Under the pieces are notes generated by a model, which made no database searches, was not told where the DNA came from, and saw nothing but the letters and a program-made list of their open reading frames with translations. 64,000 nucleotides of DNA from an uncultured bacterium (GTDB lineage: Bacteria > UBP14 > UBA6098): the NCBI GenBank assembly GCA_964606695.1, contig CAZSHG010000010.1, forward strand, positions 9,497 through 73,496, in the 5' to 3' direction. Below are positions 18,363-43,312 of this stretch, one piece after another (within the stretch, counting starts at the first letter, position 1; every line of letters starts with the position of its first letter). The position numbers were made by a program, and so were the translations under genes.

Positions 18363-18400
18363 TAGAAAAAAGCAAGGATTGAAAATTTTAATCCTTGCTT
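18363..18400 (-). terminator. Rho-independent terminator closing the 25-kb minus-strand cluster
   Basis: aagcaaggatt (18370-18380) pairs with aatccttgctt (18390-18400). On the minus strand it is followed by ttttttc. It lies 25 nt after the stop of the DsrE-like gene. Confidence 0.75.
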
Positions 18401-18424
18401 TAATCTTTTTAGATTTACTGTTCG

Positions 18425-18778
18425 TTAGAACGAGAAGGTCAGCGTGGCGTCTTTCGCCTCGTTGATGAATGTGGTCGCGCCGACTACTTCCACGCCCTCG
18501 CGCAAATCTTCCTCGGTGAAGCCGTTGGCTTCGAAGGAAAGCTCGCACATCAGGATTCTTCCGCCGAGAAGCTGGTAGCCCTCGACGAGTTCCATCAGTT
18601 CGGGCATGCCTTTGCCGGTCATGTTTTCCATAACGCCCTTAACCAGAGCGGATGCGCCGCCCGGGGTGAAGAACAGAATAACGTCGTCGCCGGAAGCTAT
18701 CGCCGAAGATGCTACGACGAAAGGCATGAAAATGTTTTCCGGTTTAGCGCCGTTGATTGTGATTGCCATCATTCCCAT
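18425..18778 (-). CDS. DsrE/DsrF-like sulfur-relay family protein (COG2210-type)
   Basis: 117 aa, no signal peptide. MAITINGAKPENIFMPFVVASSAIASGDDVILFFTPGG...ILMCELS is typical of DsrE-like proteins encoded next to TusA and rhodanese. RBS aggaga. Confidence 0.7.
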   Translation of the reverse strand: MGMMAITINGAKPENIFMPFVVASSAIASGDDVILFFTPGGASALVKGVMENMTGKGMPELMELVEGYQLLGGRILMCELSFEANGFTEEDLREGVEVVGATTFINEAKDATLTFSF

Positions 18779-18814
18779 TTGTTTTCTCCTGTTGTTTTTT
18801 GTTTATCGATTGAA

Positions 18815-19663
18815 TTATTCCATCGGGTTAGAAGAAGTCGCCGCCCATTCGTAGATGCCGCCGTCATAGACTTTGACATTCCCATAGTCCAGAACGTTTT
18901 TGAGGGCGAAGTAGATTATGCCGCTACGCAGGCTGGTTTCGCAGTAGATGATGATTTCCTTGTCGGATGTGATTCCGGCGTTGGTGAAGAGGGATTTCAT
19001 TTCCGCCTGGGGAATGAGGGTCTCGTCTTCCGTGATTATTTGCTCATAGTTGAAACTAATCGCGCCGGGGATATGTCCCTTGCGGGATGCTTCGCCCTTT
19101 TCGCCACTGAACTCTTCCGGTGTGCGGACATCGACGAGAACTACGCCGGGTTTGGCCATATTCGCCTTGACATAATCCATGGAAGCGAAGACATCGGGGT
19201 TCAGGGAGACGTTGAAGGTAGTCGGTTCGAGGACAGTGGGGTCTTTTGTAACGGGCTTACGAGCTTTGCGCCAGGCTTTCATCTGGCCGTCGAGCATCGA
19301 AACGTCCTTTGCGCCGAGGTAGTCGAGAATCCAATAGAGTCTTCCGGCTCGAACGCCTGTGTCGCAGTATAGGACTATCTTGTTGGTTTCCGAGATGCCC
19401 TTTTCGCCGAGGATTTTCGCGACGTCTTCGGGGCTTTTGAGCATGCCCTTGATTTCGCCGGGTTTGTCGAGGTCCTCGAACCAGAGATGCATCGCGCCTG
19501 TGATGTGAACTGTGCTGTAATCCGATGCTTTTCTGCCTGAGACGATAATGAGGTTTTCATCACCAGTCATGCCTGCGAGGTCTTTCACGCTGATAAGTTG
19601 CGCCTGAAGCAGACCTGCAAACAGCAGAAGGGCAAGCGAGAACAGTATTAGAGTTTTTTTCAT
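18815..19663 (-). CDS. Exported tandem-rhodanese sulfurtransferase
   Basis: Signal peptide MKKTLILFSLALLLFAGLLQA. Two rhodanese domains, each with an active-site loop Cys: VLYCDTGVRAG and IIYCETSLRSG. Confidence 0.8.
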   Translation of the reverse strand: MKKTLILFSLALLLFAGLLQAQLISVKDLAGMTGDENLIIVSGRKASDYSTVHITGAMHLWFEDLDKPGEIKGMLKSPEDVAKILGEKGISETNKIVLYCDTGVRAGRLYWILDYLGAKDVSMLDGQMKAWRKARKPVTKDPTVLEPTTFNVSLNPDVFASMDYVKANMAKPGVVLVDVRTPEEFSGEKGEASRKGHIPGAISFNYEQIITEDETLIPQAEMKSLFTNAGITSDKEIIIYCETSLRSGIIYFALKNVLDYGNVKVYDGGIYEWAATSSNPME

Positions 19664-19684
19664 TCTTTCTCCTTTTCTATTAGG

Positions 19685-20752
19685 TTAGTTAAACAAAGCC
19701 TGGAATTGGACAACAAGCTCATCATTGGGGACTTCGTTGCCGTATTCGGCTTTGTATAGATAGTTGACCTGAACTCTCGACCAGTCGTTGATGAAGTAGT
19801 TAATGCCGAAAGTAATAATGCCGGTTTCGTCATCTTCGGTATCCGAATCGCGATCGTAGAATTCGTATTTGACCACGGGCTGAAGGTTCCAGGGCGTCAT
19901 ATACGCTATGAAACCCCAGTAGCCGCCGCTTTTGGATTCGCCGGGGGGGACGACTGTGTACCAGGTGGTATCATGGGTGCAGTCAGGGGGATGTGTGACG
20001 GTGCCGCCGGAAGATTCTCTTTTTCCGCCGATATATTCTCCCTGAATGAGTAAATCTTTATAAGCAAATTGTAATTCGCCTGCAAATATCGTCTTTTTGT
20101 CTTCCTCTTCGGCTGTTGGGTCGGCCGCAGGCTGTTTGCCGGTCTGGAAACTCCCGCCGATGTTTAACATCTCGATAGGGGTTACTACGACCCTTGCGAC
20201 GATGTCTTTGGCCTTGTTGTTATCGATATCGGCCAATCCTGTCCCGTGCATTAACCCGATATTGTATCTGACCAAACTTTCGTAGTTGCCGTAAAGCATC
20301 AAACCAAGGTCGCGGTCGAGGACCAAATTGTTCACAACTTCGGAACGATAGATGGTGTATAATGCCTGGCATCCCGTATTTCTTTCGAGTCCGAAAGGAG
20401 TCTTGAATCTACCCATAGAGAAACTGGCGTAGGATTCGAGACGAGTGTATGAGACGAATGCATCCAGGAGCTTGACATCGCCCTTGAAGGGGCTTGTTTC
20501 GAGCAGAAGATAGTAACTGACGTCATATGGGATATTGCCCATGACGCCTAATCTTGCCCGGTTAAAGGTGAAATCGAATCTATTGTCGGCCTCGCCGGAA
20601 GCGTCCTCGGCGAATTTGTATTCCAGCTGAGGCTGAATATAACCGATTACATTGACGCCTTCCGATGAGCCGCCAGCCATGCATCCTTGCGCAAAAAGCG
20701 CTCCCGAATACATGGTGAGTAGAAGAAGCGATAGTAACAACAACCTTCGCAT
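19685..20752 (-). CDS. Outer-membrane porin, porin O/P (OprO/OprP)-like
   Basis: I chose the ATG at 20752 (MRRLLLLSLLLL...), which is preceded by ggaggaaaa; the track start at 20764 is also possible. MGRFKTPFGLERN...LDRDLGLMLYG...YNIGLMHGTG matches the porin O/P signature. Beta-strand periodicity throughout. Confidence 0.6.
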   Translation of the reverse strand: MRRLLLLSLLLLTMYSGALFAQGCMAGGSSEGVNVIGYIQPQLEYKFAEDASGEADNRFDFTFNRARLGVMGNIPYDVSYYLLLETSPFKGDVKLLDAFVSYTRLESYASFSMGRFKTPFGLERNTGCQALYTIYRSEVVNNLVLDRDLGLMLYGNYESLVRYNIGLMHGTGLADIDNNKAKDIVARVVVTPIEMLNIGGSFQTGKQPAADPTAEEEDKKTIFAGELQFAYKDLLIQGEYIGGKRESSGGTVTHPPDCTHDTTWYTVVPPGESKSGGYWGFIAYMTPWNLQPVVKYEFYDRDSDTEDDETGIITFGINYFINDWSRVQVNYLYKAEYGNEVPNDELVVQFQALFN

Positions 20753-20830
20753 ATTTTCCTCCATTGTTTTTTTTACAGGGAGAAGGATGGCTTCCCCCTG
20801 TATGTTATTGTTTCTCTTAAACGTATGTAA

Positions 20831-21787
20831 CTACGGGGTTGTAACCACGTAGGGATAATCTCCCGAAGCCGTCCATTTACTGCTCTCGAGATCGTCGTAG
20901 ATCATGGCGTTCACACCGTATTTGAGGCTCTTAGCATCGTAGCCGAGAACGGTCAGATATGCTGTAGCTACTGCTGAAGTATGTCCTGTCCAGCAATAAG
21001 TTACGATAGTCTGGCTCGGATCGAGATGCATAAAGCCGTCACTGGCGAGGGTTAGGTCTTCATTGATCCTATATGCGCCATCGATGTGGCCATATTGAGT
21101 AACGGCTGTTTCCGGCCAATAGACATTCACGAAGTAATCGGTCGGAGTTTCGAGGACGACACTGCCGTCAATGCCTTTGAATCCGCCGGTAACCATAGCC
21201 TCGACGCGCTCGGCGAGAATAGCCGAACCGGTGGTCGAGTTTGAAGTGATTTCCGGATAGTCGAAGGTTGCCAGTGGCGCTGTAGCCGTTGTAACCCAAC
21301 TCGCATGTCCCGAGGCGATGTTGCCGGTAAAGGAAGTCCATTTATCGAACACGGAATTCCACGAGCTCATGCCGAACTTGAGGTTCTTAGCAGTCGGATA
21401 GCCGCTGAGACGCAATGCTACGACAGCATTACAGGCACTCTGGCCACTATAGCAAGTAACCACGATGGGCAAGGAACCGCTGGCCGCGGCGTCGGTAACG
21501 ATATTCGCCAATGACGAATGAATCGCGCCTTCGATGTGGCCGAGGGTGTCGTAATCGCCCTGACTCCGAATGTCCATAATATAGTAGGAATCGGGATTGG
21601 CCGCGACGTCAGAGGCGGTGATTGTCCAGGCGTTTGTCATATCCGTCAGGTCCATGCTGTTGGCTTCCATGTATTCGACAAGGATATCGAAAGCTGAATC
21701 ATCGGGGGGATCGGTGGAATCTTTACAGCCGCTGAACAATGCCAGCATGGCCATAAGAGTGATAAGCAAATAAGCTTTTTTTAACAT
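20831..21787 (-). CDS. Lipoprotein with two rhodanese domains
   Basis: Lipobox LALFSGC. Active-site-type loops VVTCYSGQSAC and VTYCWTGHTSA. Confidence 0.75.
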   Translation of the reverse strand: MLKKAYLLITLMAMLALFSGCKDSTDPPDDSAFDILVEYMEANSMDLTDMTNAWTITASDVAANPDSYYIMDIRSQGDYDTLGHIEGAIHSSLANIVTDAAASGSLPIVVTCYSGQSACNAVVALRLSGYPTAKNLKFGMSSWNSVFDKWTSFTGNIASGHASWVTTATAPLATFDYPEITSNSTTGSAILAERVEAMVTGGFKGIDGSVVLETPTDYFVNVYWPETAVTQYGHIDGAYRINEDLTLASDGFMHLDPSQTIVTYCWTGHTSAVATAYLTVLGYDAKSLKYGVNAMIYDDLESSKWTASGDYPYVVTTP

Positions 21788-21817
21788 ATTCTCTCCTCAA
21801 AGGATAATTTTTTGGGG

Positions 21818-22267
21818 CTATCCGCCGCAACCGGCCGCAACCGGTTCGGCGTCAAGATCGGCATCGGGATCGAGCCAAAGGGTATAGCCGCCATATAGAT
21901 TGTAGATATTTGTGTATCCGAGCTTGCGAAGTCTCTCTATCGCTAAAGCTCCGCGCTTTCCTTTTTCGGAATAGATGATGATAAAGGCGTCCTTGCCGGG
22001 CTTATCCCAGGCTTGAGCGCGCCAGTATGCATCGTCTTCGATGCTTTTTTCCACCACTCCGAGGGGCATGTTGAAAGCGTAGTCGATATAGCCCTCGTCG
22101 AACTCATAAGGCTCGCGAACATCGAGGAGGATGAATTCGCCTTCCTCGTCGAAAATTGCCTGAAGCTCGTCTCGGTCCATTTCGTAATCGCCCTTGATGC
22201 CGGATCCGCCGCAACCAGTAAGGATTAGGGATACGGCAAGAACTAACAGTATAATTGATTTTTTCAT
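21818..22267 (-). CDS. Lipoprotein with a single rhodanese-like domain (Ser replaces the catalytic Cys) and a C-terminal ...AAGCGG tail
   Basis: I moved the start to the ATG at 22267 (RBS ggaggcgag), which gives MKKSIILLVLAVSLILTGC (lipobox). The loop FIIIYSEKGKRGA aligns with the xxYCxxGxRxx loops of the neighbouring rhodaneses. The ORF ends DPDADLDAEPVAAGCGG-stop. Confidence 0.7.
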   Translation of the reverse strand: MKKSIILLVLAVSLILTGCGGSGIKGDYEMDRDELQAIFDEEGEFILLDVREPYEFDEGYIDYAFNMPLGVVEKSIEDDAYWRAQAWDKPGKDAFIIIYSEKGKRGALAIERLRKLGYTNIYNLYGGYTLWLDPDADLDAEPVAAGCGG

Positions 22268-22280: not shown

Positions 22281-23492
22281 TTAAATTGCGGAAAATTTGC
22301 CGGTTCGTTCGTTCCACTTGACGAATACATACCAGAGGATGATCAACACCGCCATGAGAGCGAATGCCCCGCCGTAGCGCAGATAATCGGGCAGGAAAAT
22401 AGCCTTCTGCGACCAGTCGGGAAGTATGTGTGTAAACCAGGGTCCTACGAACTGAGCCGAGATAGGAGACATGAGTGCGAAACCAAGTCCTGCAAACCAG
22501 AGTTTGATTTGGCCTTCGCCCATACGCCACAATGTTCCGACAGCACACCCGCCGGCGATGACCATTCCCATACCGAAAATGGTGCCGCCGATAAGACCGT
22601 TCAGCCAGAAATTAGGCATGACCCAGACCAAAGCTACAGCCCTTGCTCCGCTTGGATAGGCCGAATTGATGCCCATATATTTCAAGACCGTGAAACCTAT
22701 CAGTCCGACCGCGAGAGCAGACATGACAGCAACCGGAGCCTCCGATTCACCAGTCATAAAAGGTTCGCGGAAAGAACGGGTAACGCAGAAACGCGACCGT
22801 TGACTGATTAATCCGAGAACTAATCCAATAATCGCAAACCAGGTGAGAACATCGTTATTCTTGTAGAAGAATGACGCGCCAATGAGCAGAAACATCATCA
22901 CTAAGAAGCCCAATATAGGTTGCCAGATGCCGGATTTCTCCCTGGCGGCGAGAAGCGTTACGCTCTTGCCCGAACTGAACTTTGGAAGTTTTTCCATTTC
23001 CCATAGAAGATACCTCAGGGCAATAAAAGCCCCCAGGGCAAATCCCAGGGCTAATGGAATCGCGCCGGCGGACAGAGCCGGGATACCGCTCAGGAATCCG
23101 CCAATCGTGCAACTTTTGCCTATATGGCATCCAAGCGCCATCAACACACCGCCAATAAGACCTTTCACCATCTCGCCCAGCGGCGGTATTCGAATGGCGA
23201 ATTCGCGGGACATAAGCGCTCCCACGAAAGCACCGATAACAGTCATCGTGCCGAGAAGGCCGTAAAGGTGATAATGAACCGGTGTTGCTCCTTCGAGACC
23301 GAGAATACCGAACAGCTTGAATATATTCTGTCCCCAGCTGAGATAGGTTCCAGTGCCTCCCCATGGTGATTTAACCATGAAGAGCACAATATTCAGCGTC
23401 GCAAGGATAATCCCGCCGACCCACATAGGCCAGGTTTTCCCGAAGAATGTTAACCAAAGTTGGCGCCAGGCTCCATTTTTAGAGTCTGACAT
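22281..23492 (-). CDS. yeeE: YeeE/YedE family (TsuA-type) sulfur-compound/thiosulfate transporter
   Basis: Polytopic membrane protein. The three conserved Cys contexts of the family are present: GKSCTIGGF, QRSRFCVTRSFRE and GMGMVIAGGCAVGTLWRMGEG. Confidence 0.8.
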   Translation of the reverse strand: MSDSKNGAWRQLWLTFFGKTWPMWVGGIILATLNIVLFMVKSPWGGTGTYLSWGQNIFKLFGILGLEGATPVHYHLYGLLGTMTVIGAFVGALMSREFAIRIPPLGEMVKGLIGGVLMALGCHIGKSCTIGGFLSGIPALSAGAIPLALGFALGAFIALRYLLWEMEKLPKFSSGKSVTLLAAREKSGIWQPILGFLVMMFLLIGASFFYKNNDVLTWFAIIGLVLGLISQRSRFCVTRSFREPFMTGESEAPVAVMSALAVGLIGFTVLKYMGINSAYPSGARAVALVWVMPNFWLNGLIGGTIFGMGMVIAGGCAVGTLWRMGEGQIKLWFAGLGFALMSPISAQFVGPWFTHILPDWSQKAIFLPDYLRYGGAFALMAVLIILWYVFVKWNERTGKFSAI

Positions 23493-23561: not shown

Positions 23562-23792
23562 TTATCCTTTTTTGATGTAAAACCTATTGACCCCGCCATC
23601 TTCTTCGACCAGTTCGAGAAACTCGTTGCCGGTTTTCTCGCACCATGCGGGGACGTCGTTCTTCGAACCCGGATCCGTGCCCAGTAGTTCCAGAACCTGA
23701 CCGCTTTCCATTCCCTTAATCGCCTTGGCGAGTTTCAGAATGGGCATTGGACAGGATAGACCTTTGCAATCCAGTGTTTCGTCGACTTTCAT
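23562..23792 (-). CDS. tusA: TusA/SirA-family sulfur carrier (TsuB/YeeD-like partner of YeeE)
   Basis: 76 aa. LDCKGLSCPMPILKLAKAIKGM carries the CPxP motif. RBS gggagg. Confidence 0.85.
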   Translation of the reverse strand: MKVDETLDCKGLSCPMPILKLAKAIKGMESGQVLELLGTDPGSKNDVPAWCEKTGNEFLELVEEDGGVNRFYIKKG

Positions 23793-23920: not shown

Positions 23921-24193
23921 TCAGCCTTTCTCTATTAGTTCGACAATATTCCAAACGGTCTTATCGATGACTTTATAGCACCTTTTGGAACCTTCCCGCC
24001 TGCCCTTAATAATCTTCAGATTACGAAGAACCCTTAGATGCTGTGAAATGGTGGATTGGGGTATTTTCAGTTTTTCGACCATCATCGAGACCGAACATTC
24101 GTCCTTCATTACCCCGGAGATTATCTGAAGGCGGGTCTTATTAGACAGAGCTTTGAATATCTCGGCGTATTTTTCAAATTCTCTTTCCGTCAT
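23921..24193 (-). CDS. ArsR/SmtB-family winged-helix transcriptional regulator
   Basis: FKALSNKTRLQIISGVMKDECSVSMMVEKLKIPQSTISQHLRVLRNLKIIKGRREG is the canonical ArsR HTH. Two Cys are present (DECSV and KRCYKV). Confidence 0.85.
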   Translation of the reverse strand: MTEREFEKYAEIFKALSNKTRLQIISGVMKDECSVSMMVEKLKIPQSTISQHLRVLRNLKIIKGRREGSKRCYKVIDKTVWNIVELIEKG

Positions 24194-24210: not shown

Positions 24211-27200
24211 TTAGATATTTAATGCGGCTTCGAGAACCGACGATGTTTGATTATATTTGAATCCAAGTTGCTCCATCGCACCGGAGGGACAGCTCGTCGC
24301 GCAGTTCCCACAGCCCTTACAAAGAGCAATATTGACCTGCGAAACCTGTCTTCCGTCCTTGATTATCACCTTCGGCGCTGTGTAGGGGCAAACGGCTTCG
24401 CATATACCGCACCCAACGCAGACGTCCTGGTTCACCGACGCGATAATAGATTCCGCCGTGTATTTGTCCTTCGATATTAGCGTGCATGCTCTCGCGGATG
24501 CGGCCATAGCCTGAGAAATCGACTCGTCTATAGTCTTGGGTGCGTGCGCCAGTCCCGCCAGGAACACGCCCTCCGTTGCGAAATCCACCGGGCGGAGCTT
24601 CACGTGCGCCTCCAGGAAGAAGCCGTCCTCGTTAAGCGGCGTCTTGAGCATACGCGAAATATCCACCGCGTTGGCTCTCGGAACAACGGCGGGAGCGAGA
24701 ACGAGTAAATCCGGGTTTATTTCCAATCGTTCGCCCAGTATAGGATCATCGACCTTCACGCGAATAGTGTCGCCGTCCTGCGTTACTACGGGCTTTTCGG
24801 CCTCGGTGTATCGGATGAAGATAACACCTGCATTCCGCGCTTTCTGATAATATTCCTCGCCGAAGCCGTAAGTCCTGATGTCCCGATAGAGTATGTAGAT
24901 ATTCGCTTTGGGGTTTTCCTCGGCCAGTTTGATCGCGTTTTTAATTGCCTTAGTGCAACAAATCCGCGAGCAATAGGGGTGTTTTTCGTCCCGCGACCCG
25001 ACGCATTGTATCATCACGACGTTCTTGGTCTTTTTCAGGGACTTATCCTCCGGATCGAAAAGCCTCTCTTCCAGTTCATTTTGTGTGAGGACTTTATCGT
25101 TTTCGCCGTAAAGATATTCTTCCGGTTCGTATTCCTCGCCGCCCGTAGCTACTACAATAACACCGTGTTCGATCGGTCTGTCCTCGCCGCCACTGTCAAC
25201 GATTTCCGTTTTGTAATTACCGATATATCCGTCGATGTCCTTTATCTCCGCGCTATTAAACAGGGTTATTTTTGGATGGTTCTCAACGGAGTAAATCAGG
25301 TCTTTCAGATATCCCTGCACGTCCTCGCCGGCGGGAGTGGAGTATATGTTGCGCATATTGCCGCCGAGTTCCGCTTCCTTTTCGACGAGGGTAACATCGA
25401 ACCCCTGATCCGCGATCGAGAGCGCGGATACCATACCGGCCAAACCGCCACCAATAACCAGCGCACTCTGATCGACGTCGAGAGTAACTGTCGGCAACGG
25501 TTCGAGCAGACACGATTTAGCGACCGCCATCCTCAGGAGCTTTCTGGCCTTTTCGGTGGCTTTTTCAGGTTCTTCACGATGCACCCAGGAGCATTGATCA
25601 CGAATATTCGCCATCTCGAACAGGCGCGCGTTCAATCCCGATTCGCGCAGGGTCTCCTGGAAAAGCGGCTCGTGCGTCCTCGGCGAACACGACGCCACAA
25701 CTATCCTGTTAAGCCCGTATTCGGCTATCTTATCTTTGATCTTTTCCTGTGTGTCCTGCGAACAGGTGAAAAGGTTATCCTCGGCGTAGGCTACGTTCGG
25801 CAATGTGTATGCGTAATCCACGAGCGATGGGACATCGACGACACTGCCGATATTTATTCCGCAGTGGCACACGAATACCCCGATTCGCGGCTCTTCCATC
25901 CTGACGTCCCTCTCAGGTGGATAGACCTTCTCCGCAATCGCCGTCCCTCTGACTTCGGCGAGGATACTTTCCGCGCCGGCGACCGCTCCAGATGCCTGTG
26001 TTACGGTTTCCGGGATGTCCTTCGGCGCGCTTGCCGGGCCACATACGAAGATTCCTTCGCGAGACGTTTGCACAGGTTTGAAAGTCGATGTCTCGACGAA
26101 AGAATGTTGGTTCAACCTTATTCCGAGACGTCTTTCGAGTTCGGACGTAGTGTCCGTCGGCTCGAAACCGACTGAGAGAACGACCATATCGAATTCCTCG
26201 GCATATTGACGCCCGTTTTCCTCGGTAGAATAATATACCATCAAATTGCCCGTTTCGGGTATATCGACGACCTTTCCGACACGCGACCGAATGAACCGAA
26301 CGCCCGTCTCGTCTTTTGCCCTGTTATAATAGGCCTCGAAGTCTTTGCCGTAGGCGCGTAAATCCATGAAGAATATAGTCGGCTCGATGTGTTTCTCGTG
26401 TTCCTTTGCGATCACCGCCTCTTTTATGGCATACATACAGCATACCGATGAGCAATATTTCTTATGATCGATTTCGTCCCTGCTCCCCACGCACTGTATC
26501 CACGCGATCTTACGCGGACTTGAATCGTCGGAAGGTCTCTGGATATGACCGCCAAAAGGCCCCGACGCCGATAGCATACGCTCGAATTGAATACTCGTCA
26601 GGACGTTGGGATATCTGCCGTATCCGTATTCGTATTTATGTGATGGATCGTATTTCTTCGCGCCGTTGGCCAGGATAATCGCGCCGACATCGACCTCGAC
26701 TACTTCGCTGACCATATCGTGCAAAACGGCATCTGCTTCACACGCGCTCTCACACTCGAGGCATCCGGAACACAAGCCGCATTCCAGGCATCTTTCGGCC
26801 TCAGCCATAGCCTCCTCTTCCGAAAAGCCGAGTTCGAATTCCACGAAACTCTTCGTTCTCTTTTCCATTTCGACGGTCGGCATGACCGCTCTGGGTTTTC
26901 TGTCTGTGATTTCAGGGAGAGGTTTCATGGGCAATTCCTCGTCGGGGACGTTCCTGCCCGCGCCGATGTCCCGGCCGGTTAAGAACCTGTCGATAGAAAT
27001 CGCCGATTCGTTGCCCTGATGGACGGCTTCGACAATCGATGCCGGGCCGAGAACAATATCGCCGCCCGCGAATACCCCCGGGATATTCGTTTCCAGAGTT
27101 ATCGGATCGACTTCGATTACGCTTCTATTTAATTCGATCGCGTCGAATCCGTTCAAATCGGAACGCTGACCTATCGCGATAATCACCGTGTCAGCCTTAA

Positions 27201-37262: not shown

Positions 37263-38344
37263 TAATCCTCGACCTCCGTAAGCTCGTCCTCGATGAATGT
37301 CGAAAGCGGAACAGGTTCCTCCAAATCTGCGCCCGGAACGTAATCGAATACCTCCTGCACAGCATCGCCGACGCGCGTGAATATCGACGCTACCGGTATA
37401 TCCACAGGGCAGATATCGGCGCACATGCCGCAACCAACGCAGGATATGCTCATGTGCGCGATCCTCCCGAGATGGAAGAACACCGTATTCGGCGGGACTC
37501 GTAATCCGCCGCGTCTTACGAGTTCCTTCTCGAAAACGTCCGGTTTGTATTCGTTTTCCTTTGCGTCGAAAGCACATAGCGCGCAGTAACATATCGGGCA
37601 GACACTACTACAGCCGTGGCATCCGAGACATTTCCCGAAGGCTTCGACAAGCCCTTTGATCTCCATCTTTTCGAGTTCCAGTTCCGCGAAAACGCTTGCG
37701 CGCTTCGCCTCGCGAAGCTTCTTAAGCGGTTCTATTCGCGACTCGTCCAGTCCGCCCTCGGAGATTTCGCCGGAACCTGCAAGCAGATCCTCAGCGACGT
37801 CCGTGTTCAGATATAATTCGCAACCGGCTTTAGTCGGCAGGACTGTGATATCGGTGTTGAAAGGCACTAAATATTTACAAACCTCGCAAGTCGGCCTGAT
37901 TTTGGGCGGGTTTTCATTATTATAAAACGCCTTCCAGTAATCGGGGAGTGCGTTTTCGATTTCGCCGTTATTGTAGGTATCGAAATCAAGCACGCCACCA
38001 CAAACGGGGGAGATGAAAACCAGATTCTCTCTATTTCCGCTCTCGCGTTTCACCAGTTCGCCGAAAGCGCGTAATTCGCAAGGTTTTACCACGACCGCGA
38101 CCTTGTTTGGAAAAGCGCCGCCCGACGTCAATTCGGAAAGATAATTCGCGGCGTTTTCCGGCATGAAGGGCAGGCCGGGGCGAAGATCCTCGATTTTATC
38201 AGGATCCGCAATAAGGAGGTAATTCAGCGCATCGCCCAACTGCCCCAGGCCGAAGACAGCATCGACCTTCTTATTTTCGAGTAAGTTTTTCAGAATGTTT
38301 TTAAGTCCGGTATCGATATCGCTCTTTAGTTTTACTGTTTTCAT
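37262..38344 (-). CDS. AsrA-family-like iron-sulfur protein (paralog)
   Basis: I chose the ATG at 38344 (ATGA overlap with the upstream stop) instead of the TTG at 38350. VVVKPCELRAFGELV, CLGCHGCSSVCPICYCALCAFD and CVGCGMCADICP. Confidence 0.55.
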   Translation of the reverse strand: MKTVKLKSDIDTGLKNILKNLLENKKVDAVFGLGQLGDALNYLLIADPDKIEDLRPGLPFMPENAANYLSELTSGGAFPNKVAVVVKPCELRAFGELVKRESGNRENLVFISPVCGGVLDFDTYNNGEIENALPDYWKAFYNNENPPKIRPTCEVCKYLVPFNTDITVLPTKAGCELYLNTDVAEDLLAGSGEISEGGLDESRIEPLKKLREAKRASVFAELELEKMEIKGLVEAFGKCLGCHGCSSVCPICYCALCAFDAKENEYKPDVFEKELVRRGGLRVPPNTVFFHLGRIAHMSISCVGCGMCADICPVDIPVASIFTRVGDAVQEVFDYVPGADLEEPVPLSTFIEDELTEVED

Positions 38345-39510
38345 TTGCAATCACACCCTTTCAGAGGGTCGGTGCATATCCGTTCGATATCGCCGAGTTC
38401 CTTTTCCTTGCGGAAAACCCTCAACGGCAAGGGTTCATCAATATCCATACCGGGAGAATATTCGAACAACGCCTGGCTGTCTTCAGCGACAGCACTGAAT
38501 AACTCCGCCACCGGAATATCCACCGGGCAGGCGTCCTCACAACTTCCGCAGGAAACGCAGGACATGGTCATGTGCGACATCCGACCGAGATGGAACAGGA
38601 GAACGTCCTGCGAGAAGCGAATACTGCCCTTCTGCTCCGCGCGGGACATATATTGATCCTGTGAGAACTCGATAGCTTCCGACTCGAAGTAACATCTTCG
38701 GCAATAGCAAATCGGGCAGACGCTCATACAGTTGTGGCAGGAGACGCATTTCGAGAGAACCGAGGCAAGGTTATTCAAGCCGTTCGTTCGCTCTTTGATT
38801 TCGGCGTTCGCCTTATCTCTGGCCGCCTGGCGTTCGGTCTTGATCTTCTCGATTTCCTTCGCCCATTTTTCGGTGCCGGTATCGGGCTTCAGCCCGCTTT
38901 TTTCGAGGATTTCCTCGCCCTTTTGGCTGACCGGAATTACCATGTAATCGACGCCGAACCAACCGATATGCAGATCCGGTGAAGTTATAGCGAAATGCAC
39001 GCAGGATTTACACGTCGGACGCATGGTTTCGACGTCGTTAGCCTTCAAGGCTTCGACAAAAACCTTCTCGCCGTTCTCTGGATTATCGACATAATCCTGT
39101 ATCGGCAGTGCGCCCGGGCAGTCGATACTTATAAGAGTTATATTCTCGAGATCGACCTGCTTGAGTTTGGCCAGTTCGATAGCAGACCGAATCTCGCAGG
39201 GACGCAGGACAGCCGCGATCTTCTTCTTAGACGGGCCATGCTTGGTCAGGCTGGAAAGTGCTCTGCCGCCCTGAACAGTCATGATAGGGGGGAGGACGTT
39301 GGCCAGTTCGAGCAGTGATGGGTTTTCGACAAGCACCCAGGCGTAGGAATCGTTCGACGGGACTTTCAACGGCACGAAAACGGCGTCGAAAAGCCCGCCG
39401 TCGAGTCCGTCGCGGAGGATTTGCAGAACGCCCGCGTTCAGACCGTCCGGGGCGGATAATTTGGCCGCCTTCGAGGGCATCGTCGGTATTTCGTTTGACT
39501 TTGGTTTCAT
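38341..39510 (-). CDS. AsrA-family-like iron-sulfur protein (paralog)
   Basis: AVLRPCEIRSAIELA, CVSCHNCMSVCPICYCRRCYFE and CVSCGSCEDACP. Cys-rich C-terminal tail CTDPLKGCDCK. Confidence 0.55.
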   Translation of the reverse strand: MKPKSNEIPTMPSKAAKLSAPDGLNAGVLQILRDGLDGGLFDAVFVPLKVPSNDSYAWVLVENPSLLELANVLPPIMTVQGGRALSSLTKHGPSKKKIAAVLRPCEIRSAIELAKLKQVDLENITLISIDCPGALPIQDYVDNPENGEKVFVEALKANDVETMRPTCKSCVHFAITSPDLHIGWFGVDYMVIPVSQKGEEILEKSGLKPDTGTEKWAKEIEKIKTERQAARDKANAEIKERTNGLNNLASVLSKCVSCHNCMSVCPICYCRRCYFESEAIEFSQDQYMSRAEQKGSIRFSQDVLLFHLGRMSHMTMSCVSCGSCEDACPVDIPVAELFSAVAEDSQALFEYSPGMDIDEPLPLRVFRKEKELGDIERICTDPLKGCDCK

Positions 39511-39552
39511 ATATGCTCTTCGGTTTATTAAATTATCGCTTTCATGCTATAT

Positions 39553-41250
39553 TTATAAAGACGCAATCGCCTCGATTACTTCCTGATGTAACTGCTTCTC
39601 CGTGAAATGCTTGGAACGAATCGCGCCGGAGGGACAGCTTCCCACGCAATTGCCGCATCCACGGCAGATAGCCTCGTTGACGTTGGATACACGCCTTCCG
39701 GGATCGTAGGTAACCGCGCCGTAAGAGCACACTGTAACGCAAGTCTGGCACCCCGTGCACAAATCCTCGATTACTTCCGACGTCTTCACTTCGGGATGAA
39801 GCTTTTTCCCCGGAACGAGCCGAGCGAGTATATTGCCGCTCGCCGCAAGAGCCTGTCTGGACGAATCCACGATGCTCTTCGGCCCGTTGGCCGAGCCAAC
39901 CACGAAAACTCCCTCCACCGCCGTTTTAATCGATCCGATGATCGAGTGTTCTTCCTCGAAGAAACCGAATTTATCCACCGGCAAATCTATCATCTCGGCG
40001 ATTTTAGCCGTGTCAGGTCCGGGGATAATCGCGGAGGCGAGGATGACCATATCGACTTCGATTGTCTCCTCTTTCCCCGATTCAGATTTGAACGCTATCC
40101 CGACCTTGCCGGATTTGTCGGCGATTATTATATCATCCGCGAGGGAAAAAACGACGCCGTCGTCCTTCAATTGCTTTATATAAACCGATTCTGCAGGATT
40201 TGTTACCGATAAATTGCGATACAGGTCGTGAATTTTAATGTTGGGATATTTCTCTTTGAGCGTTCCGGCGATTTTCATCAAACCGTTGCAACAGACGCCG
40301 GAACAGTAACCGACCTTATCCCGACCCACGCAATGCACCAACGCTACCGACTTCGGATCCGAACCGTCGCTAAGTTTTATCCCACCGGATTTGCATTTCT
40401 CTTCGATTTCGGAAACCGTGAATACGTTATCGACTTTGCCGTATCCCCATCTGTCGTCGTCCGAGGGATTATATTCTGAAAAACCGGTTGCAATAACCAC
40501 CGAACCGACCTTGAGATCGGCCTTCTCGTCGCCAGGTTTATTCACGACGACCTCGAAATTCCCGAAGAAGCCAATTACGCTCTCGACCTCGCTCTCAAAG
40601 AGGATATCGATATTCTCGTTCTCCTCGACAGCCTTGATTTTATCAGCGATAGTATTGGGGGAAAGGTCGCCGTAGGGCAGGATGCATCCGAATTTCCCCG
40701 CGACGCCGCCCAATTCGCCGGTCTTCTCGACGAGATAGACCTTGCGTTGCACGGAAGCCATATTCAATGCCGACTGGATACCTGAGATTCCGCCGCCGAT
40801 AACCAGGACGTCCGGAGTGCTCTCCAGCTCCTTCTGTTCGAGGGACGAATGATAGATAACTCGCTTCACGCCCGCGCGAACGTAAGAGATGACTTTATCC
40901 GTTGCCGCTGTCTTGTCTTTTATCATCCACGCACACTGCTCGCGGATGTTGATTATCTGATATAAATAGGGATTTAGCCCGGCTTCCTTGCAGACGTTCG
41001 CGAAGGTAGTCTCGTGGTCCTTGGGCGAACACGCCGCTACTACAACGTGCGTGAGCTCCTCGTCGATAATGTCCTGATGAAGGAATTCTTTGCCTGCGCC
41101 CGAACACATAAGTTTGTGCTTCTTCACAACCGACACGTCCGGGTAATCGGAAACCGTCGCCATCACTCTATCGATATCGACCGCGTCGGCGATATTCGGG
41201 CCGCATTCGCAAATATAAACGCCTATTTTGTAATTACTCTCTGCCATCAT
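39553..41250 (-). CDS. hdrA: HdrA/QmoB-like flavoprotein (C-terminal-half type) with a 2x[4Fe-4S] ferredoxin domain
   Basis: GVYICECGPNIADAVD, VLVIGGGISGIQSA, HCVGRDKVGYCSGVCCNGLMK, CTGCQTCVTVCS and CRGCGNCVGSCPSGA. Collinear with the second halves of the 1015- and 1485-aa proteins. Confidence 0.8.
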   Translation of the reverse strand: MMAESNYKIGVYICECGPNIADAVDIDRVMATVSDYPDVSVVKKHKLMCSGAGKEFLHQDIIDEELTHVVVAACSPKDHETTFANVCKEAGLNPYLYQIINIREQCAWMIKDKTAATDKVISYVRAGVKRVIYHSSLEQKELESTPDVLVIGGGISGIQSALNMASVQRKVYLVEKTGELGGVAGKFGCILPYGDLSPNTIADKIKAVEENENIDILFESEVESVIGFFGNFEVVVNKPGDEKADLKVGSVVIATGFSEYNPSDDDRWGYGKVDNVFTVSEIEEKCKSGGIKLSDGSDPKSVALVHCVGRDKVGYCSGVCCNGLMKIAGTLKEKYPNIKIHDLYRNLSVTNPAESVYIKQLKDDGVVFSLADDIIIADKSGKVGIAFKSESGKEETIEVDMVILASAIIPGPDTAKIAEMIDLPVDKFGFFEEEHSIIGSIKTAVEGVFVVGSANGPKSIVDSSRQALAASGNILARLVPGKKLHPEVKTSEVIEDLCTGCQTCVTVCSYGAVTYDPGRRVSNVNEAICRGCGNCVGSCPSGAIRSKHFTEKQLHQEVIEAIASL

Positions 41251-41272
41251 TCTCCCGCTGGATAAGGAGTGT

Positions 41273-42559
41273 TTATTCGGTTATTAAAATCGGTTCACCA
41301 ACCTCTGATAATGCCTTGCCTACAGCTCCAGAAGCCTGCTCGATGCTGGCCGAAATATCCTTTGCGCCCTCGATACAGCCCGCGATATAGATTCCCTCTT
41401 TCGACGTGCTGACCGGGGTCAATTCCGATTTGTCAGATTTGATGAAACCCGTGTCCGCAATTTCGATTCCGAGCATTTCAGCCAGTTCCGCCGTGCCGTC
41501 ACGCGGGACAAGCATGGACGCGAGGATTACCATATCAACCTTAACTTCCGCTTTATCGCCGTTGACAGCGTATCTAACGACCGCGCCGTCACCGTCCGCC
41601 ACTACTTCGATATCGTCGAATCTCTGAAAATGGACGTTCGGTTCGAGAACCTCGTCGTAGAAGGCCTGATAATTCTTCCCCGGAATGAAGAGATCGTTGT
41701 AGAGATTGTGAATCTCCGCTTCCTCGATCTTGTGTTTTATATAATGTATGAACTTGACCGGATATAACGAACTCACGCCCGAACTATAGCCGTTAACCTC
41801 TTTACCGACATCGTGAATTACCGCGACGCTCTTCGGCGATTCGCCGTTGCGCAATGTCAATTCGCCCTGAGTGGGGCCGTTGGACGCGAAAAGCCGCTCG
41901 AATTCCATCGCGGAATAGACGCAATCGATTACACCGAGGCCATATTTAGCCTCGGTCGAGGCGTTGAACATCTGGAATCCGGTGCAGATGATAATTGCGC
42001 CGACCTCGATATCGACAGTCCTGTCTTCTTTATTATAATCGATCGCCTCGAACATGCAAGATTCCTGGCACAGCGTGCATTCCTCGCCCCTGGTGAACCT
42101 CAGGCAATTAGCCTTGTCGATTACAGGAACGTTTGGCAGTGCGCCCGGACACGGCACGAAAATCGCCTTCCTCTCTGAAAGGTTCTCCTCGAACGCGTTA
42201 GGGATGCTCACGGGGCACGGCTCGTAACACGCCCCGCATCCGATACAATCCACAGCGCTCACGTAATCCGCCTGCACGTTGATCTTCACGGAAAAATTCC
42301 CGATCTCGCCGGAAATCTTCGCAATCTCAGCCATCGTCAGCAGTTCGATATTCGGGTGCTGTAACAGCTCCTGTTGTTTGGGCGCGAGCATACAGGTCGA
42401 ACATTCCATATTCGGGAAAACCTCTTCGTATTTCACGAGATTCCCCCCGATCATCGAGGTCTTCTCGGCGATATAAACCTTCCTGCCCGAACCTGCCATT
42501 AGCAAAGCGGCTTCAATTCCGGTTATCCCGGCGCCGATAATTAATACGTCTTCTTTCAT
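41273..42559 (-). CDS. HdrA/QmoA-like flavoprotein (N-terminal-half type) that has lost the CxGxRD...CSxxCC cluster motif
   Basis: VLIIGAGITGIEAALLMAGSGRKVYIAE, FPNMECSTC and CIGCGACYEPCP. At the position of CVGSRD..YCSSVCCMY it reads HDVGKEVNGYSSGVSSLY. Confidence 0.75.
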   Translation of the reverse strand: MKEDVLIIGAGITGIEAALLMAGSGRKVYIAEKTSMIGGNLVKYEEVFPNMECSTCMLAPKQQELLQHPNIELLTMAEIAKISGEIGNFSVKINVQADYVSAVDCIGCGACYEPCPVSIPNAFEENLSERKAIFVPCPGALPNVPVIDKANCLRFTRGEECTLCQESCMFEAIDYNKEDRTVDIEVGAIIICTGFQMFNASTEAKYGLGVIDCVYSAMEFERLFASNGPTQGELTLRNGESPKSVAVIHDVGKEVNGYSSGVSSLYPVKFIHYIKHKIEEAEIHNLYNDLFIPGKNYQAFYDEVLEPNVHFQRFDDIEVVADGDGAVVRYAVNGDKAEVKVDMVILASMLVPRDGTAELAEMLGIEIADTGFIKSDKSELTPVSTSKEGIYIAGCIEGAKDISASIEQASGAVGKALSEVGEPILITE

Positions 42560-42590
42560 GATAAACTTTCTGATGTTGTAGTTCTTACTA

Positions 42591-43013
42591 TCAATAGGGC
42601 GTTTGCTTGAGGGGATTCGGCCCCAGTTCTTTTATCTTCGACGTGAACTGATTAACCACGTCGGCATATCTGCGCCCCTCGGCGGCGGATACCCACGCCA
42701 GCTCTACCCGATCCGGATCGATGTTCAGGCTCTCGAGAACCTTCTTGAGCTGAGCGAACCTTCTTCGGGTAAAATAGTTTCCCTCTTTGTAATGACAATC
42801 CCCCGGATGGCATCCCGCGACCAGAACGCCGTCCGCGCCCCAGAGCAGGGCGTTGAGAACCATACCCGGATCGACGCGGCTCGAACACATCACACGCGTT
42901 ACCGAAATCGACGGCGACACATCGAATTTGTTCGACCCGGCCAAATCCGCGCCAGTATAAGAACACCAGTTGCAAAGGAAGCCGACTATATTCGGCATGA
43001 ATTCGTCAGACAC
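42591..43013 (-). CDS. mvhD: MvhD/FlpD-like protein, copy 3
   Basis: GTG start preceded by aaggtg. MSDEFMPNIVGFLCNWCSYTGADLAG...RVMCSSRVDP...GADGVLVAGCHPGDCHYKEGN. Confidence 0.85.
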   Translation of the reverse strand: MSDEFMPNIVGFLCNWCSYTGADLAGSNKFDVSPSISVTRVMCSSRVDPGMVLNALLWGADGVLVAGCHPGDCHYKEGNYFTRRRFAQLKKVLESLNIDPDRVELAWVSAAEGRRYADVVNQFTSKIKELGPNPLKQTPY

Positions 43014-43045
43014 GTTTCACCTTTTTCCTGAAACAGTGTTAAATC

Positions 43046-43077
43046 AAACAAAAAGAGGATACGACGTCGTATCCTCT
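43046..43077 (-). terminator. Perfect 24-bp palindrome plus T-run between tusA (copy 2) and mvhD (copy 3): intrinsic terminator or attenuator
   Basis: agaggatacgacgtcgtatcctct (43054-43077). On the minus strand it is followed by tttttgtttg. Confidence 0.55.
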
Positions 43078-43087
43078 CGAGTGCAAA

Positions 43088-43312
43088 TTAAAACTGAATT
43101 TGCGCAGTGAATTTACCCGTTCCGTCGTCGTTACAGAACAGAAGGGTCTTGCCGGTCTTGCTTGCCCACGCCTTGACATCGTCGGGGAAAGAGTGACAGT
43201 CCGCGAGAACTTCCAGAACGTCGCCTGGTTGAAGATCCCGCGCCTCCGCGGCGACCTTCAATATAGGCTGGGGGCATTTTAGGCCGAGCGTGTCCAGTGT
43301 TTTCGTTGCCAT
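43088..43312 (-). CDS. tusA: TusA/SirA-family sulfur carrier, copy 2
   Basis: 74 aa. LDTLGLKCPQPILKVAAEARDLQPGD (CPxP motif). RBS aggagg. Confidence 0.85.
   Translation of the reverse strand: MATKTLDTLGLKCPQPILKVAAEARDLQPGDVLEVLADCHSFPDDVKAWASKTGKTLLFCNDDGTGKFTAQIQF

Follow-up and report, generated by a model that had tools for sequence, protein, structure and literature searches.

Why do the genes of a sulfur relay stand at both ends of an extended set of genes for HdrA, MvhD and other iron-sulfur (Fe-S) proteins, and what would such a complex reduce? The question is raised by a gene cluster of an uncultured bacterium (lineage UBP14, UBA6098), found in a stretch of 64,000 nucleotides (nt) that was analysed as a whole and is called the window here, i.e., positions 9,497 to 73,496 of the forward strand of contig CAZSHG010000010.1 in assembly GCA_964606695.1. 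In our best reading, the locus encodes two functionally coupled systems, an envelope-to-cytoplasm sulfur relay and a very large soluble flavin/Fe-S complex. We hypothesize, with a probability of roughly 45%, that imported sulfane sulfur or thiosulfate carried by TusA is the electron acceptor of this complex, which would be linked to NAD(P)H and ferredoxin and would work by electron bifurcation. That a cytoplasmic complex linked to NAD(P)H and ferredoxin works on sulfur borne by TusA had been proposed in an earlier interpretation of this DNA (the sequence-only reading), and the proposal is kept here.

The cluster is an unbroken minus-strand run from 43312 down to 18425, as seen from the listing of open reading frames (ORFs) and the inspection of their starts and stops; the sequence-only reading had the run right and counted 22 genes in it, where we count 23. 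Each of its family assignments was borne out by Pfam/NCBIfam profile searches, i.e., two TusA proteins, ArsR, YeeE/YedE (Sulf_transp), three rhodaneses, Porin_O_P and a DsrE-like protein on the sulfur side, and three FlpD/MvhD proteins, four HdrA-type polypeptides, HdrC, FrhB, an AsrA/AsrB-like pair and three further Fe-S proteins on the redox side. In the order of transcription, with lengths in amino acids (aa), the genes are:

43088..43312, minus strand: tusA74, TusA-type sulfur carrier of 74 aa with CPxP active-site Cys13, beside mvhD-hdrA (Pfam TusA, E = 8e-18)
42591..43013, minus strand: mvhD140, MvhD/FlpD [2Fe-2S] electron-transfer protein, copy 1 (Pfam FlpD, E = 4e-51)
41273..42559, minus strand: hdrA428, a-type HdrA of QmoA-like layout (NCBIfam HdrA2 positions 139-557, E = 1e-108)
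39553..41250, minus strand: hdrA565, b-type HdrA (NCBIfam HdrA2, E = 3e-130; Pfam Fer4 at aa 492-545)
38341..39510, minus strand: fes389, FdhB-like Fe-S protein (PDB FdhB 9t1s_M, E = 5e-29)
37262..38350, minus strand: fes362, FdhB-like Fe-S protein (PDB FdhB 9t1s_M and 7bkb_E, E = 1e-25 to 1e-26)
36825..37262, minus strand: mvhD_b, MvhD copy 2 of 145 aa, its ATG at 37262 overlapping the fes362 stop as TAATG (Pfam FlpD, E = 7e-53)
33718..36765, minus strand: hdrA1015, fused a-type and b-type HdrA with two FAD modules (NCBIfam HdrA2, 1012 bits in 3 stretches)
33247..33690, minus strand: mvhD147, MvhD copy 3, in the FlxD position (Pfam FlpD, E = 2.5e-55)
32281..33237, minus strand: fes318, Fe-S adaptor of predicted FdhB fold, in the FlxC position (AlphaFold model, Foldseek matches to 7bkb_E and 8rvu_E)
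31186..32220, minus strand: asrA344, Fe-S subunit of the HydB/ShyB/AsrA family, in the FlxB position (Pfam Fer4_22; ShyB E = 2e-52, HydB E = 5e-48, AsrA E = 3e-44)
30356..31189, minus strand: asrB277, NAD(P)H/FAD/[2Fe-2S] subunit of the HydG/AsrB/PyrK family, in the FlxA position (Pfam FAD_binding_6, NAD_binding_1, DHODB_Fe-S_bind)
29866..30339, minus strand: hdrC157, soluble HdrC-like 2x[4Fe-4S] protein (NCBIfam HdrC, E = 7e-25; QmoC N-terminus, E = 6e-21)
28732..29850, minus strand: frhB372, FrhB-family flavoprotein with an N-terminal 2x[4Fe-4S] extension (Pfam FrhB_FdhB_N, FrhB_FdhB_C)
24211..28668, minus strand: hdrL1485, HdrL-type protein, a-type HdrA split by an NfnB/GltD NAD(P)H module (aa 157-665) and followed by a b-type HdrA (HdrA2, 1008 bits in 4 stretches)
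23921..24193, minus strand: arsR90, small ArsR-family regulator (Pfam HTH_5)
23562..23792, minus strand: tusA76, TusA-type carrier, always beside yeeE (Pfam TusA, E = 1.5e-27)
22281..23492, minus strand: yeeE403, inner-membrane sulfur (or chalcogen) transporter of the YeeE/YedE family (Pfam Sulf_transp, E = 9e-44)
21818..22267, minus strand: rhd149, single-domain rhodanese lipoprotein with lipobox LTGC (Pfam Rhodanese)
20831..21787, minus strand: rhd318, tandem-rhodanese lipoprotein (Pfam Rhodanese, 2 stretches)
19685..20764, minus strand: porin359, outer-membrane anion porin of the OprO/P family with a signal peptide (Pfam Porin_O_P, E = 6e-16)
18815..19663, minus strand: rhd282, exported tandem rhodanese of the thiosulfate/3-MST sulfurtransferase type (Pfam Rhodanese, E = 6e-37; NCBIfam 3-MST, 114 bits)
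18425..18778, minus strand: dsrE117, DsrE-family sulfur carrier (Pfam DrsE_2, DsrE)

Viewed from the redox side, the part of the cluster around fes318 is a widespread Flx-like unit: fes318 has 2137 detectable homologues, its family occurs in at least 598 species (pattern scan, one genome per species), and the order hdrA-mvhD-fes318-asrA-asrB is kept in nearly all of the 83 loci onto which all 23 window proteins were mapped. The unit occurs in Desulfobacterota, Syntrophales, Firmicutes, Cloacimonadota, Bathyarchaeia and Heimdallarchaeota, and a CCG-motif HdrB lies beside it in 27 of the 83 loci. The full extended arrangement was found only in loci L001-L005, L007-L012 and L017 (in part also in L035), none of them with HdrB, and the sulfur block is attached in the window, L003, L008, L009 and L011. 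On the sulfur side, metagenome contigs scanned with an alignment of three YeeE orthologues yielded 51 loci, and in 27 of these HdrA-type redox-cluster genes lie at most 750 nt from the tusA-yeeE-rhodanese-porin(-dsrE) block. Of the other 24, only L099, L101 and L109 are flanked on each side by 3 kb or more, and the remaining contigs are too short to judge. The block is thus linked to HdrA-type genes in 27 of the 30 informative YeeE-centred metagenomic loci, in at least six gene orders:

Arrangement A: hdrL / arsR-tusA-yeeE..., in the window, L003 and L084-L086
Arrangement B: asrB-hdrC / tusA-yeeE-rhd-rhd-porin-rhd / frhB-hdrL, the block lying inside the redox cluster, in about 18 loci with a guanine-cytosine (GC) fraction of about 0.38, including named metagenome-assembled genomes (MAGs) of Cloacimonadota
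Arrangement C: ...dsrE-tusA74-mvhD140-hdrA..., the block lying upstream, in L094 and L095 (GC 0.58)
Arrangement D: ...rhd-(frhB)-tusA74-mvhD140, in L110 and L118
Arrangement E: block divergent from hdrC-hdrB(2xCCG)-hdrA/nuoE-nuoF-FeS-mvhD-mvhG, in L091 and L092
Arrangement F: block, then dsrE-tusA-mvhD-hdrA434-hdrA644-x-hdrC-like, a minimal set with a tusA-mvhD gap of 5 nt, in L127

The sequence-only reading had staked itself on the co-conservation of sulfur and redox genes, and the linkage is indeed kept through at least six rearrangements, including one that places the block between hdrC and frhB. The tusA-mvhD140 junction of the window is also present in L094/L095, L110 and L118, and arrangements C and D show that the two sulfur ends of the window are a permutation of one neighbourhood. 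Two types of TusA can be told apart across the loci, one always beside YeeE and one beside MvhD-HdrA. The regulator gene arsR precedes tusA-yeeE in arrangements A and C and dsrE does so in arrangement D, the order dsrE-tusA-yeeE being seen in L110, L112, L120, L123, L128 and L130, while hdrC adjoins tusA directly in about 20 loci. The GC fraction of the linked loci ranges from 0.35 to 0.59, which points to the involvement of several lineages, and three Hdr architectures are paired with the block, i.e., the extended HdrB-less one, a minimal Qmo-like one and an HdrB-containing Mvh/Nuo one. Repeated reshuffling with the linkage kept, together with the pairing of three architectures, argues for joint work of the sulfur relay and the HdrA complexes. 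A strict co-occurrence of frhB with the sulfur block is no more than suggested: L001, L002, L004 and L010 lack the two and many loci possess the two, but in L105 and L118 no frhB is in view beside the block.

The relay would begin in the envelope, where the OprO/P-type porin and the three periplasmic rhodaneses would capture external sulfur, most likely polysulfide, sulfane sulfur or thiosulfate. Their export, claimed before, was supported by sequence inspection, with a lipobox in two rhodaneses and a signal peptide in the third and in the porin. YeeE would then carry the sulfur over the inner membrane onto TusA76, and DsrE117 and the product of tusA74, the second TusA gene at mvhD-hdrA, would hand it on. 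The relay residues are intact: Cys128, Cys236 and Cys316 of YeeE are conserved in 43-45 of 45 sequences, Cys14 of TusA76 is invariant in 56/56 and Cys78 of DsrE in 14/14, and catalytic cysteines are present in both domains of rhd318 (Cys112 and Cys265, invariant in 28/28) and in rhd282 (Cys241, 20/20). In TusA74, Cys13 and Cys39 are conserved in 5/5 sequences. The small rhodanese rhd149 has a serine at position 100 in place of the catalytic cysteine (YSEKGKRG; 28 of 42 homologues have Cys and 10 have Ser), and may in the window lineage be a binding protein rather than a transferase. The regulator ArsR90 is a candidate sulfur sensor, with Cys33 and Cys72 conserved in 11/12 sequences; their spacing is unlike that of the SqrR/BigR/sHdrR type. 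Its identity to the orthologues in L003, L084 and L085 reaches 93-97%, compared with about 68-76% for the neighbouring genes, and L086 has two arsR copies.

On the redox side, the complex would comprise three HdrA a/b pseudo-heterodimers, three MvhD connectors, FdhB-like adaptors and a HydBG/Flx-type NAD(P)H dehydrogenase, joined by an NfnB-type NAD(P)H site, an FrhB-type flavoprotein and HdrC. The sequence-only reading counted six HdrA FAD modules in four polypeptides (428, 565, 1015 and 1485 aa), a count that NCBIfam and blastp confirmed and that is accounted for by three paralogous a/b pairs (blastp among the HdrA pieces and NCBIfam coordinates). The a-type, consisting of an FAD domain with an inserted ferredoxin domain and lacking terminal domains, makes up the whole of hdrA428, and it recurs as the N-half of hdrA1015 and, in split form, as the N-part of hdrL, with both of which hdrA428 aligns end to end (blastp). 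The b-type, with an N-terminal cluster, FAD and C-terminal 2x[4Fe-4S] domains, is represented by hdrA565 and by the C-halves of hdrA1015 and hdrL, which are paralogous to it (blastp). One pair is thus encoded as separate genes, one is fused, and one is fused with NfnB/GltD inserted in the a-type. The NfnB/GltD-type module announced earlier lies inside the 1485-aa protein at aa 157-665, where PRK12771 matches with 533 bits (cutoff 516); the PDB matches of this protein are HdrA 5odc_A and NfnB/GltD. The separate, fused and fused-with-NfnB pairs form a natural series for studying the wiring of HdrA modules.

The second MvhD was hidden in an ORF of 255 aa (36825-37592), which we recast as a 145-aa protein starting at ATG 37262; the FlpD match spans aa 123-245 of the long ORF, and the L003 orthologue is called at 144 aa. 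The Fe-S proteins fes389, fes362 and fes318 are mutual paralogues with one common cysteine pattern (fes389 and fes362 are 34% identical), and their best solved relatives are the FdhB subunits of Hdr-bound formate dehydrogenase complexes (7bkb_E, 8rvu_E, 9t1s_M; E = 1e-24 to 1e-29). The AlphaFold model of fes318 (pLDDT 88, pTM 0.87) matches 7bkb_E with a Foldseek TMq of 0.77 and 8rvu_E with 0.73. Since FdhB feeds MvhD-HdrA in the solved structures, homology and model identify all three as probable input adaptors to MvhD-HdrA, not as a terminal site. The neighbouring asrA344 is a HydB homologue that matches the beta subunit of Pyrococcus sulfhydrogenase I in the PDB (9nez_B, E = 1e-45), and asrB277 matches the NCBIfam hydrogenase gamma model with E = 2e-69, the HydG/AsrB-type matches ranging from 2e-69 to 3e-56. 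The idea that the AsrA-like proteins provide the terminal site therefore did not survive: three are FdhB-type by homology, one of them also by fold, the fourth is a HydB-type subunit, and all belong to the electron-input wiring. A terminal sulfur site on these proteins was accordingly rejected as a candidate on grounds of homology and fold.

The soluble hdrC157 matches PDB HdrC with E of about 1e-21 (1.5e-21) and has, beside eight cluster ligands, a ninth cysteine, Cys127, that is invariant in 30/30 extended-type orthologues and falls in the C-terminal motif ELD+F.Q.LRC; a scan of the window found no HdrB partner encoded near it. The closest PDB relatives of frhB372 are 8rja_E (E = 4e-47) and 8riu_B (E = 9e-40), F420-reductase modules of ethane-oxidising archaea (PMC11493965), and by this homology it is a predicted hydride-exchange module. 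In the closest relatives, at L003:13396-15844 and L084:2358-4846 and also in L085 and L086, frhB is called as a 675-aa protein with FrhB domains and a histidine-kinase ATPase domain, and a response regulator lies between frhB and hdrL. The window has no such insert, which may represent either a two-component system for redox sensing or a fusion made in gene calling.

The cluster lacks CCG-domain HdrB, and this bears on any account of its chemistry. The sequence-only reading had reported the window to be without HdrB/CCG, LbpA, hydrogenase, Fdh, Apr, Sat and Dsr, and none was found in the ORFs scanned over the 64 kb, which comprised most of those with 110 aa or more, nor was a lipoyl or GcvH-type domain found in the window ORFs scanned. 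Among the cluster ORFs there is no PF02754 match (Pfam, E < 0.01), and a CCG-motif regular expression, which does detect HdrB in the 27 canonical loci, gave 0 matches in all six frames of the window and likewise 0 in the extended-type relatives. A CCG-type HdrB among the AsrA-like ORFs, which the earlier reading had itself named as a finding that would speak against it, did not appear in the profile search, and by both methods an HdrB hidden among the Fe-S ORFs is ruled out. Absence from the window does not mean absence from the genome, as illustrated by L094/L095, in which HdrB is encoded about 8 kb away in a separate Tfr-like cluster, and by L091, in which the sulfur block is paired with an HdrB-containing cluster. 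In the GC-rich lineage of L094, positions 410-5811 carry hdrB (CCG) and hdrA together with genes for an Fe-S protein and for a flavoprotein resembling fumarate reductase (thiol:fumarate-reductase-like). This cluster is found 4-9 kb upstream of the block of sulfur genes, with EF-G and a sugar-phosphate-isomerase-like gene between.

How, then, would the complex use the sulfur? Flavin-based electron bifurcation at the HdrA flavins would oxidise NAD(P)H and perhaps another hydride carrier at FrhB, the low-potential electrons going to ferredoxin and the higher-potential electrons reducing the carrier-bound sulfur to H2S. TusA-persulfide or TusA-thiosulfonate would take the role held by CoM-S-S-CoB in methanogens and proposed for DsrC with Flx-Hdr and HdrABC/HdrL. 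In sulfate reducers, the latter two are the proposed reductants of DsrC, a sulfur carrier of the TusE family, and organisms without DsrC are said to need another, unknown substitute (PMC6687939, PMC5947623), for which TusA-bound persulfide or thiosulfonate would be a natural candidate. We infer the reductive direction because the modules belong to bifurcating enzymes that oxidise NAD(P)H or H2, because in arrangement E the block is paired with an Mvh-type cluster that oxidises H2, and because the parts that define sHdr (HdrB1/B2, LbpA) are missing; the group-3c-type Mvh/HdrABC of arrangement E runs from H2 to an acceptor, which favours sulfur as the acceptor. The catalytic site is the most tentative part of the scheme, the candidates being the HdrC-like protein with Cys127, FrhB, or an HdrB encoded elsewhere in the genome. 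The narrower proposal of a TusA-dependent, HdrB-independent flavin-based bifurcating sulfane-sulfur (or thiosulfate) reductase appears doubtful; in it, a protein-bound persulfide would replace the heterodisulfide or DsrC as high-potential acceptor, and the site, e.g., the HdrC-like Cys127 protein or the FrhB-like flavoprotein, would be one hitherto unseen in Hdr enzymes. If true, it would give fermentative bacteria of the Cloacimonadota-like (FCB) kind a novel way to reduce sulfur in dissimilation and to conserve energy.

The acceptor proposal is drawn from gene content and linkage, and several points weigh against it. The CCG-domain HdrB that the cluster lacks is the sole known disulfide-reducing site of Hdr enzymes, which leaves the S-S chemistry without a recognised catalyst, and HdrB could be supplied from elsewhere in the genome, as the gene 8 kb off in L094/L095 shows. 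The couple of elemental sulfur or polysulfide with HS- lies at about -260 to -270 mV and is a marginal acceptor for NADH-driven bifurcation in sulfidic habitats, and the thiosulfate/(sulfite + HS-) couple, at about -400 mV, is a still worse one. The link is facultative, as L001, L002, L004 and L010 have the full redox cluster with no sulfur block in view. A hairpin follows tusA74 and arsR possibly marks a separate regulatory unit, so that the two parts may be transcribed separately.

The layout of the run bears on this last point. Intergenic gaps are 9-128 nt, the widest being that from arsR to tusA (128 nt), and three start/stop overlaps reported before were found again, i.e., 4 nt in asrA/asrB, 10 nt in fes389/fes362, and TAATG in fes362/mvhD_b after correction of the mvhD start. 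The ORF of the small rhodanese is 170 aa long, its start is most likely at 22267 (149 aa), and it thus does not overlap yeeE. Two hairpins of equal rank stand out:

18369..18401, minus strand: distal intrinsic terminator, 12-bp stem and U-tract (-18.2 kcal/mol, z = -5.0)
43053..43078, minus strand: terminator-like hairpin between tusA74 and mvhD140, 11-bp stem inside a 24-nt perfect palindrome, then a U-tract (-17.4 kcal/mol, z = -5.0)

The distal terminator noted by the sequence-only reading is real, and its supposed uniqueness is not, as an equally strong hairpin with a U-tract directly follows tusA74. The 25-kb block is therefore probably more than one transcription unit, and a single operon across the cluster is not supported. 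A hairpin with a U-run, of different sequence, lies at the same spot after tusA74 in L110 and L118. The perfect palindrome at 43054-43077 of the window (halves AGAGGATACGAC and GTCGTATCCTCT) reads as a terminator hairpin, yet may just as well be a site bound by a dimeric regulator. Apart from it, the regions upstream of tusA74, mvhD140, tusA76 and arsR showed no convincing shared ArsR operator, and an Rfam scan of the whole window found no riboswitch and no known RNA. A scan for sigma-70 promoters gave counts not clearly above those in shuffled sequence, the consensus being probably unsuited to an FCB-type (Fibrobacteres-Chlorobi-Bacteroidetes) host.

These points leave room for the two parts being independent neighbours, i.e., a Flx/HdrL/Nfn-type NADH-NADPH-ferredoxin hub (transhydrogenase or confurcating) with a non-sulfur acceptor, next to an ArsR-controlled block for sulfur assimilation or for detoxifying reactive sulfur species, their proximity reflecting co-regulation in sulfidic habitats or history. 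We regard this as unlikely, without dismissing it: the extended clusters free of a sulfur block (L001, L002, L004, L010), the occurrence of the Flx-like core in at least 598 species, mostly without sulfur genes, the terminator-like hairpin after tusA74, the position of arsR at the head of the distal block and the lack of a recognisable sulfur-reducing catalytic subunit in the cluster all fit it. However, 27 of the 30 informative YeeE loci are HdrA-linked in at least 6 orders, among them one in which the block splits the redox cluster and one in which just 5 nt part tusA from mvhD, a pattern that is hard to maintain without selection for co-function. Rather than a substrate, the relay could supply the sulfur that goes into the complex itself, e.g., into its more than 50 Fe-S clusters, or into a cofactor, e.g., a thiolated one. 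TusA-family proteins also feed biosynthetic sulfur pathways and the cluster is exceptionally rich in Fe-S, but the locus contains no cysteine desulfurase or Fe-S scaffold gene, and a dedicated outer-membrane porin with three periplasmic rhodaneses implies bulk uptake of external sulfur, which makes this supply role very improbable.

The nature and the fate of the imported element may also be read otherwise. Handling of selenium or tellurium, in which selenite or tellurite would be taken in by a YedE/YedF-type importer and an ExtH/ExtI-type porin and rhodanese and then be reduced by the flavoprotein complex, is suggested by the best NCBIfam match of the transporter, which is full-length and to YedE/FdhT (124 bits), by weak matches of the porin to ExtI (50 bits, cutoff 150) and of rhd282 to ExtH, by matches of the TusA copies to YedF as well, and by a partial match of hdrL to the 'diclust_near_Sec' family. 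Every such score lies far below its curated cutoff (for yeeE403, 123.6 bits against 350 for YedE/FdhT, and also 98.9 and 78.7 against 400 and 645 for TsuA), no cluster gene needs an in-frame TGA (selenocysteine), a multi-flavin complex of about 20 kb is out of proportion to a trace element, and DsrE with multiple rhodaneses is typical of sulfur relays; we therefore consider this improbable. The reverse direction was suggested by Williams et al. 2021 (PMC8542988), who reported a MAG of Ca. Stygibacter (Cloacimonadota) in which Hdr genes cluster with TusA, a sulfur transporter and a rhodanese bearing a signal peptide, and read them as sHdr-like sulfur oxidation. Applied to the window, sulfane sulfur delivered by rhodanese and TusA would be oxidised and the electrons passed to NAD(P)+ or ferredoxin for carbon fixation, and TusA, DsrE and rhodanese sets do always accompany sHdr systems (PMC11094781). 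Such oxidation is quite improbable here, since the HdrB1/B2 CCG subunit and the lipoate-binding protein were found neither in the window ORFs scanned nor in the extended-type relatives, HdrA, MvhD, Flx and NfnB are together the equipment of complexes that are reductive or bifurcating, and one relative ties the block to an H2-oxidising Mvh-type cluster. The earlier oxidative interpretation of such a cluster thus fails the defining features of sHdr and calls for correction.

How new is the machine? The sequence-only reading called it undescribed, which is overstated: its middle segment has the composition and order of Flx/Flox-Hdr, its 1485-aa protein is of the HdrL type, and the linkage to sulfur genes was noted by Williams et al. 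2021. Flx-Hdr (FlxABCD-HdrABC, also Flox-Hdr) is, in the accounts given of Ramos et al. 2015 (via PMC6687939, PMC4759654), an NADH dehydrogenase/heterodisulfide reductase of Desulfovibrio vulgaris and other anaerobes. The series hdrA1015-mvhD147-fes318-asrA344-asrB277-hdrC157 reproduces its parts list, as judged by composition and order: the FlxA features (NAD(P)H, FAD, [2Fe-2S]) are present in asrB277, the FlxD feature in mvhD147 adjoining hdrA1015 and the HdrC feature in hdrC157, while asrA344 and fes318 are assigned to the FlxB and FlxC positions from gene order. Unlike Flx-Hdr, the window cluster lacks HdrB with its two CCG domains, has no visible DsrC context, and has an HdrA that is a fused a/b double module set among two more HdrA a/b sets, FrhB and HdrL. 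HdrL was defined in Desulfobacterium autotrophicum (PMC2702500) as a fusion of HdrA with the glutamate synthase small subunit, and the HdrABC/HdrL locus of Syntrophobacter fumaroxidans (Sfum_0819-0824), detected only with sulfate present, has been proposed to reduce DsrC (PMC5947623). Like HdrL, hdrL1485 joins HdrA modules and an NAD(P)H-binding GltD/NfnB module in one polypeptide, and an FdhB-like Fe-S protein occurs in the same cluster, fes318 resembling Sfum_0822. The cluster also has three mvhD genes, none of which adjoins hdrL; in its combination of fes318, mvhD and hdrL it corresponds to the HdrABC/HdrL locus of Syntrophobacter. In contrast, the window hdrL has no adjacent hdrB, and it is followed by arsR-tusA-yeeE and not by dsr genes.

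The three HdrA pairs of the window, each divided between an a-type lacking terminal domains and a b-type with a ferredoxin domain, resemble QmoA/QmoB in layout. QmoABC and the window both have an MvhD module and an HdrC-like 2x[4Fe-4S] module, and the minimal set of L127 (tusA-mvhD-hdrA434-hdrA644-...-hdrC-like) resembles a soluble Qmo. QmoABC differs in that the window has neither the membrane cytochrome b domain nor aprAB and encodes MvhD as a separate protein; hdrC157 matches only positions 3-98 of the 360-position QmoC model, and no QmoA or QmoB match is among the NCBIfam matches listed. The genetic tie of an Hdr-type complex to a TusA/DsrE/rhodanese set recalls sHdr-LbpA (PMC6067878, PMC11094781), to which, besides the missing HdrB1/B2 and lipoate-binding protein, the MvhD, Flx-type, NfnB-type and FrhB-type modules of the window are foreign. 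With the methanogen MvhADG-HdrABC and Fdh-Hdr-Fmd complexes (PDB 5odc, 7bkb, 8rvu) the cluster has clear HdrA, HdrC and MvhD homologues and the FdhB-like fes proteins in common, but not the hydrogenase (MvhA, MvhG), the Fdh catalytic subunit, HdrB or a CoM/CoB context, and here it is modules of the NAD(P)H type that provide the hydride input; the relative L091 does have an MvhG-type gene. The importer has its own parallels in the YTD cluster, yedE-tusA-dsrE with conserved proteins (PMC13490349), and in TsuA/TsuB (YeeE/YeeD), described as a thiosulfate uptake pair (Tanaka et al. 2020, as cited in PMC8542988). As in the former, yedE-related, tusA and dsrE-like genes stand together (yeeE403, tusA76, dsrE117), and as in the latter, a transporter with three conserved cysteines has an adjacent TusA-like partner with an active-site cysteine. 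It differs from YTD in having a single DsrE-family gene, without DsrEFH-type-II partners, and three exported rhodaneses and an OprO/P porin instead, and from TsuA/TsuB and YedE in that yeeE403 falls under the curated cutoffs of the TsuA and YedE models. The Flx-like unit, HdrL and the YTD/TsuAB-like importer are thus known kinds. New variants are the HdrB-less triple-HdrA assembly, its conserved coupling in multiple arrangements to a porin-rhodanese-YeeE-TusA-DsrE relay, and the split of TusA into importer-associated and HdrA-associated copies.

The host is probably an anaerobe of the FCB group, as suggested by two window proteins with sorting domains for type IX secretion. Giant predicted secreted proteins in the window (51143-57832, 5459-6061, 10542-17912 and 57820-60597, listed together) include one of 2229 aa with Ig-like domains and a CHU_C type IX secretion signal; Por_Secre_tail is carried by a protein of 200 aa, and the ORFs of 2456 and 925 aa gave no significant domain match. 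Elsewhere in the window, tandem paralogues of 285 and 286 aa (8719-9576 and 9614-10474) each have a C-terminal Lcl_C, a gene for an Mrr-type restriction endonuclease (49366-49926) lies between PAP2-family phosphatase genes, and a 475-aa ORF (56-1483) combines a thymidylate-kinase-like domain with an HD / Ppx-GppA domain III region in an unusual fusion.

Of the putative electron-bifurcating systems of anaerobes, those of the Flx-Hdr and HdrL types rank with the most widespread, and their high-potential acceptor outside the sulfate reducers is unknown (PMC6687939). The conserved link to a full outer-membrane-to-cytoplasm sulfur relay provides a concrete candidate for it, TusA-bound sulfur. If this is true, uncultured fermenters that abound in sulfidic waters and sediments, i.e., Cloacimonadota and their relatives, would gain a cytoplasmic sulfur-reducing and ferredoxin-generating pathway that is missed by surveys of the marker genes dsr, psr, phs and sHdr.

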